From a virus (lineage: Duplodnaviria; Caudoviricetes), in the IMG/VR virus record IMGVR_UViG_3300037246_000766, positions 1-52,202 of that record: a stretch of DNA of 52,202 nucleotides, one strand, 5' to 3'. Made by a program: the position numbers and the translations under genes. This document shows, piece by piece, positions 169 to 52,202 of this stretch. Numbering within the stretch: position 1 is the first letter of the stretch; every line of letters starts with the position of its first letter. The notes below the pieces were generated by a model. The model had not been told where the DNA came from and made no database searches. It saw nothing but the letters and a program-made list of their open reading frames with translations.

Positions 169-390
169 ATGGAGAAGCACATGGCGCAACGCTCGATGCT
201 CGACCAGCCAAAAACTAACTGGGTTTGCCCGTGCGGAGCAAAAGTGTTTGAGATCTTGGTGTGTCCGAATTGCATCCACACACCACAGTCTCATATCGTT
301 GGGTTCAAATGTATTGGATGCGACACGATTCACACAACGGATCTCGAAGGGTCTACCTTCGATGAAGAATTTGAGAACGTCGTCCATTGA
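169..390 (+). CDS. small Zn-finger-like protein
   Basis: GGAGG RBS before ATG169; CPC, CPNC and CIGC motifs. Confidence 0.6.
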   Translation: MEKHMAQRSMLDQPKTNWVCPCGAKVFEILVCPNCIHTPQSHIVGFKCIGCDTIHTTDLEGSTFDEEFENVVH

Positions 391-971
391 TTTGGATGGC
401 CTCATATGGAGACAAGCCACCCGTGGCTAAAGTATCAACAAATTTCACTGTCTACGAAGTCGGGCGCTCAGACATAGCGACTCGACTTGAGATCCCGAAC
501 AAGCCTCCCCAATGGGTGCTTGAGAATGCAGCGCTAGTAGCAACGCATATCCTTGAGCCTGTTCGGGAGCACTTCGGTAAAGGATACCTTCCGAACTCCT
601 GGTACCGCAGCGAGGAGTTTGAGCAGATACTGACTTGGGAGAAAGGCTTTCGCCGCTGGTGCGCTAGGCACAATAAAAACTGGATCACGAAGGCTGAACT
701 GTACAAGAGGCCGAAGGCACTCGACTCATGGACTGAGTATTTCGATCGCAAGCAGCACCCCACGGGGAAGGCAGTGGACATCGAGATCGCAGGCGTGGAC
801 AATGACACGCTTTTCTTCTGGATTCGAGACAACCTGGGGTTCGACCAGCTCATTCGTGAGTTCCCGAACCCAGGCGATCCGGCTTCGGGCTGGGTCCATG
901 TCTCGTGGTCCTGTGTACAAACGAATCGGCAGAGTTACTTCTCGTACCCGAGCTATGACAAATACGTCTGA
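387..971 (+). CDS. endolysin, peptidase M15A family (Zn peptidase)
   Basis: SWYRS, QHPTGKAVDI, FDQLIRE and GWVHVS motifs; sits next to a holin-like gene. Start may be ATG396. Confidence 0.85.
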   Translation: MIWMASYGDKPPVAKVSTNFTVYEVGRSDIATRLEIPNKPPQWVLENAALVATHILEPVREHFGKGYLPNSWYRSEEFEQILTWEKGFRRWCARHNKNWITKAELYKRPKALDSWTEYFDRKQHPTGKAVDIEIAGVDNDTLFFWIRDNLGFDQLIREFPNPGDPASGWVHVSWSCVQTNRQSYFSYPSYDKYV

Positions 972-1203
972 ATGGTGCTCACGAGCATCGGAGTGCATGA
1001 ACGAACTGAGGATCGTACCTCGGATTGCGCTCGTGACGTACTTCGGCTTTGTCGGGTACGTGTCACTGTGGTTCATGGAGCTACCCGATCCCTCGGGTGT
1101 GCAGATGACCTTCGCAACTTTGATCGCGGGCTTACTCCCTGCAGTCATCGGGCTCTACCAGGGCTCCATCAAGATGGGACACGCAAATGCCAGCAATAGT
1201 TAA
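955..1203 (+). CDS. putative holin (2 TM helices)
   Basis: 82 aa from ATG955 with two hydrophobic segments (IALVTYFGFVGYVSLWF; MTFATLIAGLLPAVIGLY); directly after the endolysin. Confidence 0.65.
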   Translation: MTNTSEWCSRASECMNELRIVPRIALVTYFGFVGYVSLWFMELPDPSGVQMTFATLIAGLLPAVIGLYQGSIKMGHANASNS

Positions 1204-2797
1204 CGAGACTCTCGCGATTGGAACGCATGTCTTCATGGTGAACCCAAGAGTTCAGACAAACATCGTTGTCGACTCGCTAGGGAGTGGAGGTACAGCAAGC
1301 GTTGACTTCACCTACGATGACAGGGGCGAGGACACCATCCTCTCGGGTGGCAACTTCGCTGCTGACGTAGCGAGTGCGGAGTGGGCTCCGGGTGGCACTG
1401 CGCGATCTGCTCAGACTCTGCGTGGACCAGTGACTGCTATCCGGTTCGTAGTGGCTGGGGGTACTGTCAGAGTTGTTGCTGATCGTGCTGGCAAAGTGCG
1501 AAAGATACTCTTCCCAGGAGGCGAGACTCACGTTGGTAATAAGATAGCTTGTGCGATGACCATGACGATTGCCGCGTCGGGACGACAGCTGGCTCCTGGT
1601 GTTGGCGCAGTGTCGATGAACATGGTGATTGCATCAGTAGGATTGAATTCGGTTCACCATGGTGCTGGGTCCATGCCGATGACGATGGCGCAGGCTGCGG
1701 GTGGAACAATCGATAAGACACACCATGGTGATAGCTCAGTGTCGATGAACATGACGCTCGCATCAGTGGGATCGAACCCGGTTCATCATGGTGATGGCGT
1801 ACCAGCGATGACGATGGCATTAGCTGGAACATCTGCAGATCTTAAAGTCCATCACGGTACCGCAGCTATGCCCATGACGATGGCACTGGATGCAGACGGA
1901 TCGAATCCAGTTCACCATGGTGACGGTGTACCGGCAATGAACATGGCGCTGGCCGGTGTAGGGCTGAACCCCACACAACATGGCATCGGTGCTCTAGCAA
2001 TGGGTATGGCACTGGCTGCGACGGGAACAAACGAACCGGCTGGCGTAGTTTCTTTGGCTTCTGACTTCAATGAGGCTGTGCTCTTGGAAGATACGACTGG
2101 ACCGCTTGTATCAGGACAGGCTGATGGACGTGTCTGTACGATCTCGTTCTGGTACAAAAACAACGCTAACCATTCTCATGACCAGGAAATAATTCGAATT
2201 CAGAATGGCTCCAGTCAGGCGGCGCTCAACGTACGGAATTCTTGGGCACGCTCCCAATCCCTTGTGGTTAATACGACTTCAAGCGGAAGTAACTCTTTGA
2301 TCTCATGCGCATCGGCAAACAGCTCGGTTCAAGTCGCGGACGGATGGAACCACTTCATGTGTTCATTTGAAAATACCTTTCCTCTGGATTCAGTCGCACA
2401 CGTAACTGGGTATTTTAATGGCGTGCTGCTCGTGCATGGTACTAACGGTGAGATTGTTAACCAGTCAATCCAAAATCTTGATATCGCATACAATGCTCGC
2501 GGCAAGGAAATTGTATCGGCTTCAAACGGATTCCCAAGCGCGAGTGGTTTCCTTGATGGACAGATATCAAATCTGTATGTGAATATTCAGGAGCGCCTCG
2601 ACCTGACTATCCAAGCGAACCGAGAGAAGTTCTACTCAGCAACGGGCGGGAACACAGATCTCGGTTCGGATGGCTCGGCTCCAACTGGAAGTCAGCCCAT
2701 CATCTTTGCTCCAGACGGTGACTTGAGAGTGAATGCCGGGTATGGTCCGAACCTCACCAAAATCTCAGGTACCATCACAGCTGTTGCAGGTCCTTAA
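1187..2797 (+). CDS. putative virion fibre/decoration protein: N-terminal beta domain, His/Met repeats, C-terminal LamG/ConA-like domain
   Basis: TISFW, DGWNHF, YFNG and FLDGQISNL resemble a LamG domain; eight ~21-aa repeats in the middle. Confidence 0.65.
   Translation: MPAIVNETLAIGTHVFMVNPRVQTNIVVDSLGSGGTASVDFTYDDRGEDTILSGGNFAADVASAEWAPGGTARSAQTLRGPVTAIRFVVAGGTVRVVADRAGKVRKILFPGGETHVGNKIACAMTMTIAASGRQLAPGVGAVSMNMVIASVGLNSVHHGAGSMPMTMAQAAGGTIDKTHHGDSSVSMNMTLASVGSNPVHHGDGVPAMTMALAGTSADLKVHHGTAAMPMTMALDADGSNPVHHGDGVPAMNMALAGVGLNPTQHGIGALAMGMALAATGTNEPAGVVSLASDFNEAVLLEDTTGPLVSGQADGRVCTISFWYKNNANHSHDQEIIRIQNGSSQAALNVRNSWARSQSLVVNTTSSGSNSLISCASANSSVQVADGWNHFMCSFENTFPLDSVAHVTGYFNGVLLVHGTNGEIVNQSIQNLDIAYNARGKEIVSASNGFPSASGFLDGQISNLYVNIQERLDLTIQANREKFYSATGGNTDLGSDGSAPTGSQPIIFAPDGDLRVNAGYGPNLTKISGTITAVAGP
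1529..2030 (+). repeat. eight tandem ~21-22 codon repeats (HHGxGxxxMxMxLAxxG)
   Basis: Visible in the translation and as degenerate DNA repeats (e.g. tcgaacccggttcatcatggtgatggcgtacc vs tcgaatccagttcaccatggtgacggtgtacc). Confidence 0.9.
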
Positions 2798-2809
2798 CGG
2801 AGAAATTCA

Positions 2810-3154
2810 ATGACTGATCTAAGTAGAAACCGTGCCGTCGTTAACGACACTCTCGCAGTCGGCACTCATGTTTTCATGACCCCCGCTTACCGTGGCGCTC
2901 TCTACGGTGTGGTGGACACGTTGGGTCAAGGCGGCACCGCGCTTATCGAGTACACGTTCGATGATCGAGACAAGGATGTTATCCTTTCGGGTACGAACCC
3001 GGCAGGCGTCTTCGCTGCTGACGTGGCGAGCGCCGAGTGGAACCTCGGAGTCGTAGCGCGAGGCGCAGAGACCCTGGAGGGTCCGATCACAGCTATCAAG
3101 ATCACGATAGCGGTCGGCACGGTCAGGGTAGTAGTGGCTCCGCACCCACTTTAG
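2810..3154 (+). CDS. small structural-like protein, paralog of the N-terminal domain of 1187-2797
   Basis: Shared blocks VN(D/E)TLA(V/I)GTHVFM, FAADVASAEW, TL.GP(I/V)TAI and GTVRVV; GGAG RBS. Confidence 0.8.
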   Translation: MTDLSRNRAVVNDTLAVGTHVFMTPAYRGALYGVVDTLGQGGTALIEYTFDDRDKDVILSGTNPAGVFAADVASAEWNLGVVARGAETLEGPITAIKITIAVGTVRVVVAPHPL

Positions 3155-3175
3155 GGGCGGAAGTTAAAGTGAAGT

Positions 3176-3601
3176 GTGACGGAGGCCCCTGAGAGGCCCC
3201 AGGAGAGAGACGTGATACCAACGAAGCTCATCATAGCGGGGGTCGTGACCGTGCTGCTCCTGGCTGCAGGAGCGGCCATTTGGATGCACTACACGGGGCT
3301 GCTCAGCACCATTACGCAGCTTGAGACCGACAAGGCCCAGCTCCAGACCGCAGTCCAGCTCAAACAGGCCCAGATCGTGTCCCTGGAGGCCCAGGCCGCG
3401 TCTTCGAAGGAGCGGATGGAGGTAGTCCAGGCTGACTTCGCGGAGGCCAGGGCACAGGCTGAGCGCGTCAAGACGCTGTTCGCCAACCATGACTTCGACA
3501 GGCTCGCCAAGGCTAAGCCGGGGCTGATCTCGCGGAGAATGCAGAAGGCAACCGCCGCAGTATTTGCGGAGATTGAGGAGATTGGCAATGAAGAATTATA
3601 G
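3176..3601 (+). CDS. i-spanin (Rz-like)
   Basis: One N-terminal TM helix followed by a coiled coil; HDFDRLAKAKPGLI motif; upstream of a lipoprotein gene. Confidence 0.7.
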   Translation: MTEAPERPQERDVIPTKLIIAGVVTVLLLAAGAAIWMHYTGLLSTITQLETDKAQLQTAVQLKQAQIVSLEAQAASSKERMEVVQADFAEARAQAERVKTLFANHDFDRLAKAKPGLISRRMQKATAAVFAEIEEIGNEEL

Positions 3602-3770
3602 CGTCGAGTTTCTCCTACAGGGCGGGGCCGGAAAGGCGTGGGCTCCCAACGTGGAGAATCCAGTGACAGCTACAAATCTAAAGAGCGTGCTGCAACAACT
3701 CGCTGATGGGATACCTGGAGACGGCATGGTCGAGTTCATCGGTGTTCGGGTAGAGCTGGTCGATGAATAG
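3588..3770 (+). CDS. hypothetical protein (60 aa) between the spanin genes
   Basis: GAGGAG RBS before ATG3588; overlaps both neighbours by a few bases. Confidence 0.6.
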   Translation: MKNYSVEFLLQGGAGKAWAPNVENPVTATNLKSVLQQLADGIPGDGMVEFIGVRVELVDE

Positions 3771-4092
3771 GTACCACACACTTCTCATGTTTTGTGTGGT
3801 AGCTCTCACCGGGTGTGGCTCTGCACCCGTCAAGCTAGACGTCAGTCAAGTCGTCAGGTTGGAGTGTGGTGCCGAGCCCAAAGTGGACCGGTTGCACATG
3901 CGAATCGTCAAGCCTTGGGTCATCGAGGACAACGCCGGCATCACTTGGATCGGGATCTCACCAGACCATTACGAGAATCTCAGCACCAACATCGCAAGTG
4001 TCAAGTCGCAACTCAAGCAGCGAGTGTCTGTCAACAAGTTCTATCGCAAGTGCATCGAGAGCTTCAATGCCCCGCAAGCTGACAGCACTTGA
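3763..4092 (+). CDS. o-spanin (Rz1-like lipoprotein)
   Basis: Signal peptide with lipobox LTGC; YENLS.N...YRKC helical C-terminus. Confidence 0.7.
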   Translation: MNRYHTLLMFCVVALTGCGSAPVKLDVSQVVRLECGAEPKVDRLHMRIVKPWVIEDNAGITWIGISPDHYENLSTNIASVKSQLKQRVSVNKFYRKCIESFNAPQADST

Positions 4093-6745
4093 GTTCGCTG
4101 AACAGCTCAAGGTCCCGAACGTCACAACCCGAGTCCTTGGTGGCGCAACCCACGCGAGCGTCGGTTGGGCAATAGGCTGGGCCAAAACCCGCATACGACA
4201 GCTGTCGCAGCAGATTCGACGTTCGACAATTCAACGAGAACAAGATAAACAACGCACGCGTTTTGCAGACATCCTGACTTTCAAGGATGGTAGTCCTGTT
4301 AACTCTTCCCCGAACGAGAGTATACCTAAGAGTGTTGTCTTCGACCGTCGCTATTACTACGCTGTCAATGGGAAGAACGTCAACAGCATCGAGCTGTTCC
4401 TGAATGCCTACGTCGGTCTCTGGTCGATCACGATTCGTGCCATAGATGCAGTGGGGACTCCCGTCTTGTTCTTGATAACTGATGCAAGCGAACACGAAGC
4501 TATTGTCGGATCGGGAGAAAGTACGACAGAGTTTCCTGTCACTCGTGTGAATCTCTCGACTATTGAAGACGATGAAAGTCCGTTGATCAATGTTGTTCCT
4601 GTACGAGCGACAGCCTTGGGGAATCGTTTCACGTTTAGTACAACAGAGGAGACTGAGCTATCTGGCAAACAGGCTTGGAGAAATTTTGACGCTCGTAGAC
4701 TCTACAAAGTTCTAAGCCCGTGGGTCAATATAAATGTAGCGGCGATTAAGAGCACTTTTATTTGGGTGTCTCCACCGGAGCTGGTGGCGATTACAGGAAT
4801 GAAGTACCAAGCCACTTCAATGGTGCCTGTTTATTATGATCGTGCTAATGACAAAATAACTTTGTGGGTTGGAGAAAATGGTATCGGTGAGCCCGATCAA
4901 CAATTCCGAAGTAGACTGCTTGATCCTAGTGGCAATCCAGGTGGTTCGTCATACGACGTACCAGTCATAAACATTGAAATAGCTGCTAGCTTTTTCTGGA
5001 CAATCGATGTGGATGATTATTTGGTCAGTGGTGTCCCCGCTGGAGGACGTACGACACTCACTGATGTCAGCGCGGGGAGCCCACTCTCAGTAGACTGGGC
5101 ACTAGAGGTTGGACTACTGACTGACCCTATCCCCACTGAAGATGGCGCGTTTGATTTTGTTAGTACTGATCAGCGTTTTGTCGACGGTGGGTTAACGACT
5201 ATCAACTTCTCCATACGAGCGACCGGAGTAATCTCGGGGGGTATCGCCTCGTCAGTTCTCGTAGAAGTCAGTCCTTCATTTCTTATTGAGGGAGATTCTA
5301 TACTCGCGGGGTTCACAAACGATCTGACAGGGAACCCTCCTATACTGTCGGACATGGGTCAACACTTCAATGTTACACGTAACAATGTCGCTCTCGGGTC
5401 CAACGCACTCTCAGAACAAGCCGGTAAATATGTAGATGCATCAAGCGCAGCTACAGAAAAACTCAAAGTCACTGTAACTGATAGCAACAAGGGTGGCTGG
5501 TCAGGCGCAAGTGGATACCCTTTCGGTACTCACTTCGCTGGACTAATTGCTTCGCGCTTGGCCCCGCCGGGTTTTGTTGATTTCCCAGCGTCGTTTGATT
5601 TTATTGAAAGTGACACGCATGCAGGTAGTCCACTAATTCGGCACGTATACAACACAAATCTTTACCTATATGAAGGCGTTCATGTTATCCACCGACGATT
5701 CGTACAACACGAGGGGTTCCTCAGAAACGGTAAAGCTTTTGTCGCACTAGAGGGAACTTCATATACAGAGAACGAAACAACAGCGGAGTGGAAAGTCTTC
5801 ACATGGATTAACGGAATCATACAACCGTCGACACGTAGCTTTGATGCATCTATTACCCAGGATATCAAAGACCCGTCGCCTGGGAGCGTGCCTTATCAAT
5901 TGAAAGTCGAGCAGTCGGGCGGGACTATATCTATGACTGATTTGTTTTCCAGAGATACCCCGGTGGACGTGGGTACGGGAGGAATTATTACAAAAAGTGT
6001 AACGCAACCTCCGCAATCTTTTTCATCAGCTCAACAGGGAATGCACACAATTCTTAGCACTGACAAAAAGTTTGATGACGGTTTTGGTAATGATATCTTT
6101 GGAGAGAATGTTGAGATCGATCCGATCTCTGGCTTTAAGCGGGTTACTCGACCTTCAGGCACCCTTCAACAAGCTCGGATCTTGGACGAGACCGGAGCAA
6201 TCATCGCGGAGTATGTAGACGATAAAAATGCACGCAACGAGCAGTTCAATATTAGGGGTATACAAACATCATTCATCCAAGTTTTTAGTGATGTAGGTTT
6301 CGGTGTTCTTTCATTTAGTGAACCAGGAATTGAGTCTACGGATGTAGTGCTTGTTGATGGGAAATTCGATTTCCGTTTCATCGGGCAGGGGCTCAACTCG
6401 ATGGCTAATGACAGCAGAATCTATATGAATGATATCGGGCTCACACCGGATAACGGTATCAGTATTCGTTGGATCGATGCAGTCGAGGATCAACACGGTC
6501 TCTTCATGGGACTTGTGAGTACTGACTTTGAAACGCTGCGAGATGAATGGGCTACTATCAATGCGGATGTCGAATCTACACCAGAACAAATCACTGCTGC
6601 GCGTGATGCAGCCGTGGCTGAGATCACTGTGTTATACAACAACTTCGCTAGTCTCGATTTTGTTCTTGCAGCAGCGAGCACTGGTTTGGGTATAGATGAG
6701 GGTGGGTTGCATCTCTATATCGTAGACAAACAAGTAGATATCTAG
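4067..6745 (+). CDS. large putative virion/tail protein (892 aa)
   Basis: Long ORF rich in Ser/Thr/Gly and beta-strand-like sequence. Likely start is ATG4067 (MPRKL), since the upstream extension overlaps the o-spanin gene. Confidence 0.6.
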   Translation: MPRKLTALEFAEQLKVPNVTTRVLGGATHASVGWAIGWAKTRIRQLSQQIRRSTIQREQDKQRTRFADILTFKDGSPVNSSPNESIPKSVVFDRRYYYAVNGKNVNSIELFLNAYVGLWSITIRAIDAVGTPVLFLITDASEHEAIVGSGESTTEFPVTRVNLSTIEDDESPLINVVPVRATALGNRFTFSTTEETELSGKQAWRNFDARRLYKVLSPWVNINVAAIKSTFIWVSPPELVAITGMKYQATSMVPVYYDRANDKITLWVGENGIGEPDQQFRSRLLDPSGNPGGSSYDVPVINIEIAASFFWTIDVDDYLVSGVPAGGRTTLTDVSAGSPLSVDWALEVGLLTDPIPTEDGAFDFVSTDQRFVDGGLTTINFSIRATGVISGGIASSVLVEVSPSFLIEGDSILAGFTNDLTGNPPILSDMGQHFNVTRNNVALGSNALSEQAGKYVDASSAATEKLKVTVTDSNKGGWSGASGYPFGTHFAGLIASRLAPPGFVDFPASFDFIESDTHAGSPLIRHVYNTNLYLYEGVHVIHRRFVQHEGFLRNGKAFVALEGTSYTENETTAEWKVFTWINGIIQPSTRSFDASITQDIKDPSPGSVPYQLKVEQSGGTISMTDLFSRDTPVDVGTGGIITKSVTQPPQSFSSAQQGMHTILSTDKKFDDGFGNDIFGENVEIDPISGFKRVTRPSGTLQQARILDETGAIIAEYVDDKNARNEQFNIRGIQTSFIQVFSDVGFGVLSFSEPGIESTDVVLVDGKFDFRFIGQGLNSMANDSRIYMNDIGLTPDNGISIRWIDAVEDQHGLFMGLVSTDFETLRDEWATINADVESTPEQITAARDAAVAEITVLYNNFASLDFVLAAASTGLGIDEGGLHLYIVDKQVDI

Positions 6746-51868: not shown

Positions 51869-52202
51869 ATGGCACTAAGATTGACGGACGGACTGCGGAA
51901 TCACATCCTGCAGGTTAGCTCGGTGGAGGCTGCGCTTACTCTCGGGTTTCTCATGATCTACAGCGGGTCTCAACCCGCAAGCGCAAATGACGCCGCGACC
52001 GGAGTTCGTCTCGCGACGATTGCTGTCGACGGTGGTGCAATCGGACTTACGTTCGATGCGATTGTTGTAGCGGGTACGTTGCCCAAAGCTGCGGCAGAAG
52101 TGTGGAACGGGACAGCTGGTGCAACAGGCACGGCTGGCTGGTTCCGTTTTCATGAACTGGACACAAACAAAGCGACTACGGAAGCAAGTGCTGACGCAGG
52201 CG
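51869..52202 (+). CDS. virion structural protein (3' partial)
   Basis: MALRLTDGLRN...IYSGSQPASANDAATG...GTAGWFRF; GGAGG RBS; runs off the window end. Confidence 0.7.
   Translation, partial: MALRLTDGLRNHILQVSSVEAALTLGFLMIYSGSQPASANDAATGVRLATIAVDGGAIGLTFDAIVVAGTLPKAAAEVWNGTAGATGTAGWFRFHELDTNKATTEASADAG

Follow-up and report, generated by a model that had tools for sequence, protein, structure and literature searches.

Introduction

The shafts of phage fibres include triple beta-helix and beta-spiral types, and to our knowledge no shaft repeat is known in which methionine is fixed at two positions together with a pair of histidines. Among proteins rich in Met and His, SilE and PcoE are disordered binders of copper or silver. 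In this work, we describe an array of eight units of about 21 residues, each built around a Met-x-Met (MxM) core, in the protein P0001, which is encoded in the IMG/VR virus record IMGVR_UViG_3300037246_000766, a linear sequence of 52,202 bp, 81% complete by the rating of that database and hereafter called the window. Modular in build and encoded among the late genes, P0001 comes from an uncultured podovirus of marine sediment, a distant relative of Pseudomonas phages KPP25 and phiR18, and from its sequence we infer that it would be a fibre-type protein carrying an undescribed shaft repeat.

Repeated His motifs on fibre-like proteins have precedents. As recounted in PMC11705849, the HxH sites in the needle domain of T4 gp37 lie on one strand face and provide six His per Fe2+ in the trimer, and the same source discusses further 'Ferrojan horse' fibres, such as gp12 of Alteromonas podovirus R22Y, which, like the array, present repeated His motifs on a fibre-like protein and for which a metal load is proposed. 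Unlike in gp37, the His of the array are adjacent (HH-G), HxH is absent, Met is the most conserved residue, and no similarity to PDB chains or GenBank phages was detected. Thus, the analogy to the gp37 HxH sites that had been drawn in a preliminary description of this DNA, made from the sequence alone, fails at motif level. A match in ligand type is CusF, a periplasmic chaperone for Cu(I)/Ag(I) whose ligand set, as given in PMC9302797, consists of one His plus MxM; the array matches it at the level of the motif only, since CusF folds as one small domain whose only site is capped by Trp44, whereas the array has no aromatic residue, no Pfam CusF match, eight copies and a hydrophobic strand. The His/Met-rich region of CopI (PMC13308877), and likewise SilE and PcoE, resemble the array in their enrichment in Met and His; proteins of that type are polar or acidic with no strict period, whereas the array is hydrophobic, uncharged, periodic at 21 residues and devoid of a Pfam match.

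The repeat array

P0001 (window 1187-2797, + strand; 536 aa, no internal stop) comprises an N-terminal beta-sandwich, the Met/His array and a LamG-like C-terminal module. The array occupies positions 1529-2041 of the + strand (aa 115-285), as defined by its unit boundaries, a shuffle test and periodicity at lag 21. Its units lie at 1529-1588, 1589-1645, 1646-1717, 1718-1780, 1781-1840, 1841-1909, 1910-1972 and 1973-2041, are 19-24 residues long, and follow the consensus H-H-G-x-G-x-x-x-M-T-M-A-[IL]-A-A-x-G-x-N-x-x. The preliminary description had placed the array at 1529-2030 (aa 115-281); its location stands, and its end is moved, as the eighth unit extends 11 nt further, to 2041. An MxM core is present in 8/8 units, in the order MTM, MNM, MPMTM, MNM, MTM, MPMTM, MNM and MGM, with start positions at aa 124, 144, 163/165, 187, 208, 228/230, 251 and 272. 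Units 3-7 open with HHG (HH-G at aa 157, 179, 200, 222 and 243) and unit 8 with QHG (aa 264); in unit 1 the His is offset (T-H-V-G), and unit 2 lacks His. His is thereby found 7-8 residues upstream of MxM in six of the eight units, in addition to the unit with the offset His.

The array contains 10 overlapping MxM motifs. When its 171 residues were shuffled 20,000 times, MxM motifs averaged 1.78 per shuffle and never exceeded 7, and five HHG were never obtained; the self-similarity of the array is maximal at lag 21 (z = 8.2). These results bear out the earlier reading of eight units of about 21 residues, all with MxM (of the types then listed) and five starting with HHG. At the DNA level, Tandem Repeats Finder reported nothing on positions 1100-2900, and the identity between units is 0.38-0.71 in ungapped register; outside the Met core, the protein identity among the units is 24-67%. 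The lack of a DNA repeat and the low DNA identity between units indicate that the array is old and maintained at the protein level, and we regard it, as judged from these comparisons, as an old repeat kept at that level. The His-His-Gly codons at window positions 1655-1920 often read C-A-C/T-C-A-T-G-G, with the palindrome CCATGG, as a result of which the antisense frame also reads H-H-G, in a spurious minus-strand open reading frame (ORF) at 1467-1832.

In composition, the array holds 10.7% Met and 7.1% His and is rich in Gly, Ala, Ser and Pro. Aromatic residues (Trp, Tyr, Phe) and HxH are absent from aa 115-285, and Cys occurs once; P0001 has a single HxH, the H-S-H at aa 329 within the LamG domain. 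Its mean hydropathy is 0.527, compared to a boundary of 0.422 between folded and disordered sequences, and its net charge is almost nil, values that place it on the folded side, unlike typical disordered linkers.

The start codon of P0001 (ATG at 1187) lies 17 nt inside the upstream ORF, and a gene caller placed the start at Met124 instead (window 1556), giving the 413-aa P0003. However, aa 3-98 of P0001 are 63% identical to the next ORF. This points to a coding N-terminal part and makes the 536-aa form the probable product. The Met124 start in public gene calls removes the N-terminal domain, though this domain is conserved in P0002 and in the metagenomic protein P0067. No RNA run was listed as a holder of the P0001 gene, and one sequencing run (X2) holds a small share of the LamG region only.

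Carriers of the repeat

Proteins related to P0001 were searched with HMMER among 1.84 billion representative proteins, and a region search was run from P0016, one of the matches. Only two other proteins were matched through the array, namely P0016 (1,477 aa, 10 units) and P0158 (1,253 aa, 6 units), the latter found by the region search; a hidden Markov model (HMM) of the unit counted 8 units in P0001, 10 in P0016 and 6 in P0158. Across the searches of 1.84 billion representatives and 5.8 billion clusters, three protein clusters carry the motif. All ten units of P0016 are exactly 21 residues long and have MTM (10/10). The array of P0016 is 52-53% identical to that of P0001 and 54% identical to that of P0158, and the arrays of P0001 and P0158 share 42% identity.

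The 24 units of the three proteins were combined into one profile, in which the most conserved positions are Gly at p3 and p17 (22/24 each) and Met at p9 (22/24, with Ala in 2) and p11 (21/24, with Ala in 2 and Ile in 1). His occupies p1 in 17/24 units and p2 in 15/24, Gly p5 in 15/24, Thr p10 in 17/24, Ala p12 in 18/24 and Asn p19 in 16/24, and p13 holds Ile in 17/24, Leu in 5, Val in 1 and Gln in 1. The two core positions are therefore Met at 43 of 48 places, with Ala at four, Ile at one, and neither Leu nor Val at any. All five replacements occur in P0158, which also has one unit without His, indicating that the putative ligands are dispensable in individual units. Replacement of Met by Leu or Ile in homologues had been named beforehand as grounds against metal binding; replacements do occur at those five P0158 positions, and Leu is never among them. 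As Met never gives way to Leu or Val while p13 exchanges its residues freely, the constraint appears to be Met-specific rather than one of generic hydrophobicity, and the two positions can be taken, from the aligned units, to be under Met-specific selection.

In P0016 and P0158, repeats of another kind, which lack Met and have a similar period (L-P-x-L-x-V-x-G type), follow directly on the array and are themselves followed by a conserved C-terminal domain. The two proteins match the PHROG families 'virion structural protein' (1.6e-97; 3e-12) and 'tail fiber protein' (1.1e-35), and match SPRY or DUF7483 in addition; a DUF7483 relative adjoins collagen-like fibre genes. The phage context that had been proposed for P0001 is supported.

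Further searches delimit how rare the repeat is. With the array, P0001, the P0016 array and a two-array alignment as queries, no relative of the array or of P0001 was found in IMG/VR viral, JGI metagenome or GTDB genome contigs, and P0012 had no relative in genome contigs. Neither tblastn of P0001 and P0016 nor megablast of the structural block matched any of the GenBank phages (50,697 in the tblastn search). A DNA pattern of two units, HHG..MxM..HHG, hit 60 IMG/VR loci, with a true array in 0/60; the single in-frame look-alike in each of two loci (L031 and L048) was dismissed as chance. A two-unit M-T-M-A pattern gave 28 IMG/VR loci and at least 120 genome loci, with no His/Met array in any of those listed. 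The array profile matched only noise from membrane (glutamate) transporters among all PDB sequences (best E 0.019), and a search of the ESM Atlas with aa 115-285 reached a best score of 0.87 with no named family. Moreover, the array had no Pfam match, no copper- or silver-protein Pfam family, CusF and SilE included, was found at E <= 1, P0001 had no PHROG match, and literature searches returned no paper describing the repeat. The repeat is thus new to Pfam, the PHROGs, PDB sequences, GenBank phages, and the IMG/VR scans and literature searched, in line with the earlier statement that no described phage protein carries it.

Fold of the array

Within the unit, the large hydrophobic residues at p9, p11 and p13 alternate with the small T10, A12 and A14, and this alternation, bounded by conserved Gly and Asn, suggests one beta-strand and one turn per unit. 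Each unit would thus form an amphipathic strand with Met9, Met11 and Ile/Leu13 on one face and Ala/Thr on the other, followed by a turn of Gly, Asn and His (G3, G5, G17, N19 and H1/H2). If like units stack in parallel, they would build an elongated shaft, a solenoid or an intertwined oligomer, and on this ground we read the array as an elongated beta-structured shaft, which may keep the lectin-like tip at a distance from the N-terminal domain. The Met-specific selection would find its simplest explanation in tight packing within a narrow seam that accepts unbranched Met or small Ala and rejects Leu or Val, and the ladder of His in the turns may add sensitivity to pH or to metal. Our preferred reading, to which we give a probability of about one half, is that the array would be a beta-structured shaft or spacer with Met-specific packing.

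Similar architectures are found among phage beta-repeat shafts and in a fibre-like family of IMG/VR, which share with the array repeats of about 20-22 residues whose Gly-bounded strands alternate hydrophobic and small residues, beside LamG-like domains. Members of this family, from uncultured phages, occur in loci L074 (5350-7656, - strand) and L085 (2891-4537, - strand) and in about 15 more IMG/VR loci, with repeats of about 21-22 aa of the form N-x-D-V-T-G-x-x-h-x-h-x-[VI]-G; some have an inserted LamG-like domain, and M-T-M is one strand variant among others such as L-T-S, A-Q-I and L-N-L. Their repeats score below 6 with the unit HMM, compared to 21-37 for true units, and we take the likeness as analogy rather than as established homology. 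Accordingly, these V-T-G repeats, as well as the L-P-x-L-x-V repeats of P0016 and P0158, were considered as Met-free versions of the array and rejected, being undetected by the unit HMM.

Several observations weigh against the shaft reading or parts of it. In the AlphaFold2 (AF2) model of the full protein, built from an alignment of 22 sequences, aa 102-286 lack secondary structure, with a predicted local distance difference test (pLDDT) score of about 30. One His or more is retained in 22/24 units. Leu and Val are absent from all 48 core positions, although either could replace Met by one base change and p13 varies among Ile, Leu, Val and Gln; such an absence is uncommon in cores that are simply hydrophobic, and agrees with a chemical function of the thioether. 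As for the place of the protein in the virion, P0001 lacks a PHROG match and is flanked by lysis genes, which leaves it a putative virion protein, and gp02-gp08 of phiR18 have no detectable similarity to the P0001 region. Lastly, the N-termini of P0009 and P0005, two relatives described below, had looked like the same domain as that of P0001 on visual impression, and BLASTP gave no significant similarity (E 0.7-1.2). A prediction with three copies of aa 100-300 gave no confident fold either (score 0.01), an outcome that counts neither for nor against a shaft; the trimeric beta-stalk proposed in the preliminary description was supported by neither model.

The low pLDDT and the missing secondary structure would be expected if the array were an intrinsically disordered His/Met-rich linker, a flexible tether that might serve as a low-affinity metal 'sponge' in the manner of SilE/PcoE or of the His/Met-rich regions of CopI. 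The richness in Gly, Ala, Ser and Pro agrees with such a linker, and copper-binding regions rich in His and Met are described for periplasmic proteins (as presented in PMC13308877 and PMC12509749). However, the hydropathy, the near-zero charge, the strict 21-residue period and the conserved Gly, Asn, Ile and Leu are marks of a folded repeat, and obligate oligomeric fibre shafts also receive low scores when predicted as monomers; we therefore hold a disordered linker to be very doubtful.

Possible metal binding by the array

The conserved Met pair and the His also raise the question of a metal-binding shaft, in which one or two His and the MxM pair of a unit, or of two adjacent units, would form an ion site. 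A CusF-like site of His, Met and Met would take Cu(I) or Ag(I), and a ladder of His would take Zn, Ni, Fe or Cu(II); each chain could then hold a row of up to eight ions, for stability, assembly or receptor targeting. Gly-x-Gly after His favours backbone-assisted Cu(II) binding in other proteins, and the array His precede Gly-x-Gly. The retention of Met at nearly all core positions, never as Leu or Val, and its constancy in P0001 units that are otherwise so divergent, agree with such a role, as does the presence of His in nearly all units. The ligands of CusF are His36, Met47 and Met49, the same set as that of the array, and CusF M47I/M49I is non-functional, according to the account in PMC9302797. 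A structural metal bound through His in a phage fibre has a precedent in T4 gp37 (as cited in PMC11705849), and failed folding by metal-free predictors would be expected if metal were needed.

Conversely, the array offers neither Trp nor another aromatic residue as a cap, its Cys is single, and no Pfam family of copper or silver proteins is matched at E <= 1. The position of His wobbles between p1 and p2, two units have none, and Met is exchanged for Ala or Ile at the five P0158 positions. The Met residues stand within a strongly hydrophobic strand rich in Ala, Ile and Leu, as is typical of a buried core; the closest relatives of P0001 lack the array altogether; and the 10 neighbouring ORFs that were scanned showed nothing related to copper. 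On balance, we consider a metal-binding shaft unlikely. In a more specific form, each unit would be a metal-dependent rung, in which the inward-pointing Met9 and Met11 of a long strand and one His of a short H-H-G strand would hold one Cu(I) or Ag(I) in the core of a two-layer beta-solenoid or an intertwined trimer, giving a row of 6-10 thioether/imidazole sites in an array that would fold only with metal and would occur in two proteins (P0001 and P0016) of one marine-sediment phage; we judge this form quite improbable. What can be stated is that the motif is real, rare and selectively maintained, and that the proposed copper binding would be chemically plausible. The shaft with Met-specific packing remains the reading followed below.

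Flanking domains

The N-terminal domain of about 105 aa (1187-1501, + strand) is predicted as an 8-stranded beta-sandwich (AF2 strands at 5-100, pLDDT about 60-70), and when folded alone it again gave a generic 8-stranded sandwich, with a mean pLDDT of 60. Its relatives in sequence are only P0002 (60-63% identity) and the 114-aa metagenomic protein P0067 (50%). P0002 is a 114-aa stand-alone paralogue of the domain, 63% identical to aa 3-98 of P0001, encoded at 2810-3154 (+ strand) immediately after P0001, with a GGAG motif ahead of its ATG. In VIA-align, the best structural match of the domain was an Ena spore-appendage subunit (Z 8.3), followed by PirA, XepA, a phage cement protein and jelly rolls of the TNF/C1q type, all of them in the range that the tool terms a common arrangement. 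The domain may be an anchor, as the preliminary description had it.

The C-terminal region (2045-2794, + strand; aa 287-536) consists of a jelly roll of the LamG/pentraxin type and a tail of about 60 aa, with AF2 pLDDT values of 70-92. In Foldseek searches against PDB, the jelly roll matched pentraxins, the neurexin LNS domain and LamG domains (best E 6.5e-7), and in BFVD it matched many 'Concanavalin A-like lectin' proteins of uncultured phages (best E 1.3e-9). Together with the AF2 parts, these matches agree with the layout first proposed for P0001, namely an N-terminal domain, the array and a LamG-like C-terminus. At the sequence level, P0001 scored 18.2 bits with the Pfam family Laminin_G_3 (PF13385), under the cut-off of 27.6, whereas P0009 (75.7) and P0005 (55.6) lie above it; fold and sequence family of the C-terminal 250 aa are nonetheless those of the LamG/ConA-like modules of PF13385. 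The tail (P0001 aa 470-536) carries the motif N-R-E-K-F ... G-S-D-G-S-x-P-T-G, its residues D472, N478, G496, G501, P504, N516 and G518 are nearly invariant, and it recurs after each module in relatives with several modules.

The main protein search found 1,540 proteins at E <= 1e-3. Among the 150 matches listed, all aligned best in the LamG part except the protein itself, P0016 and P0067, and P0016 was the sole relative matched through the array. Nearest in the LamG part are P0004 and P0009 (63% identity) and P0005 (55%), which can be aligned up to the end of the array and carry further LamG modules in its place; whereas P0009, P0010 and P0005 have tandem LamG modules, P0001 has one, with the Met/His array replacing the others. 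The presence of extra modules instead of the array indicates that the array is an exchangeable cassette and a swappable spacer, and from these alignments it appears to have been swapped as a cassette into a modular protein. The likeliest role of P0001 would be that of a fibre or receptor-binding protein, borne on the virion and recognising carbohydrates; its beta-shaft fold, its location in the virion and the role of the array as a spacer are all features that we infer.

Genomic context

The major capsid protein encoded in the window shares 56% identity with its counterparts in KPP25 and phiR18 (Kochitakasuvirus, about 64 kb). On the + strand, a late block includes P0001, P0002, the capsid gene, a gene for an SU10-type adaptor and Hc3-type genes, and P0001 lies in the late region that in phiR18 contains the annotated tail fibre gene, but shows no similarity to it in sequence. 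The lysis genes (window 387-4092) are split around P0001 and P0002: an endolysin gene (387-971; phrog_894, 7.7e-22) and a gene for a small membrane protein (985-1203) precede them, and an Rz-like i-spanin (3176-3601; 5.2e-13), a 68-aa ORF (3564-3770) and a lipoprotein of the Rz1-like o-spanin type (3763-4092; 2.5e-6) follow. Right after the spanins, a late ORF of 888 aa (4079-6745) has no Pfam or PHROG match, no MxM and no HxH, and may encode the main tail spike or fibre of this phage.

Given this arrangement, P0001 and P0002 could instead be non-virion products, accessory to the lysis cassette and freed at lysis, with the lectin domain acting on the envelope or on debris, in a manner comparable to XepA of the PBSX lysis cassette. 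Their position between the endolysin and membrane protein genes and the spanin genes speaks for it, along with the lack of a PHROG match for P0001 and the structural match between XepA and the N-terminal domain (Z 7.7). However, a Z of 7.7 falls in the common-arrangement range and is tied with dozens of unrelated beta-sandwiches. Moreover, relatives of this phage scatter lysis genes among structural genes, the endolysin gene of phiR18 standing just before Hc3, and the other array carriers are virion-structural or tail-fibre-like. We thus regard a role restricted to lysis as highly improbable, and a virion-borne shaft as preferable.

Both ends of the window cut ORFs (51869-52201 and 3-167). At the right end, the cut ORF is homologous to phiR18 gp81 (45% identity across 97 aa), and since the window stops there, about 11 kb of virion genes, equivalent to phiR18 gp82 to gp01, are absent from the record. 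P0016 may be encoded in this missing part, or by a co-resident phage. In a marine sediment metagenome that contains the P0001 gene and is a possible source of the window (run X1), a contig of 10,611 nt had a depth of 17.4, against 17.7 for the contig of the window; it contains array-like pieces, and its overhanging ends translate to three stretches present in P0016 units. If P0001 and P0016 were two virion proteins of the same phage sharing the array, a role in docking or co-assembly would be raised, with the arrays pairing with each other or binding the same virion site and so serving for attachment, which is compatible with any fold of the array. Consistent with such a module are the near-equal depth of the two contigs, the break of the incomplete window upstream of the region that holds the large virion proteins of phiR18, and the array identities, as the array of P0001 is as near to that of P0016 (53%) as the array of P0158 is (54%), and nearer than to that of P0158 itself. 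However, equal depth in one run is only suggestive, and X1 may be the source sample; no contig connects P0001 and P0016; and among the database proteins of 294-938 aa from the source of P0158, none is a second carrier of the array. A shared docking module is quite unlikely in our view.

Discussion

The motif described here is extremely rare, and the array that carries it is compact (about 170 aa). If the array is only a shaft, it would add an undescribed type of repeat to the architecture of phage fibres, and its fixed Met pair would represent an unusual, residue-specific packing of the core. Should copper or silver be bound, the array would provide the first soft-metal site of Met and His in a virion protein, judging by the literature searched. 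It would then have relevance to the cycling of trace metals by marine viruses and to receptor targeting, and could be a natural model for protein nanowires loaded with metal. Under the metal-rung form of this proposal, virions would carry tens to hundreds of copper ions, and the iron-centred 'Ferrojan horse' idea would be extended to copper.

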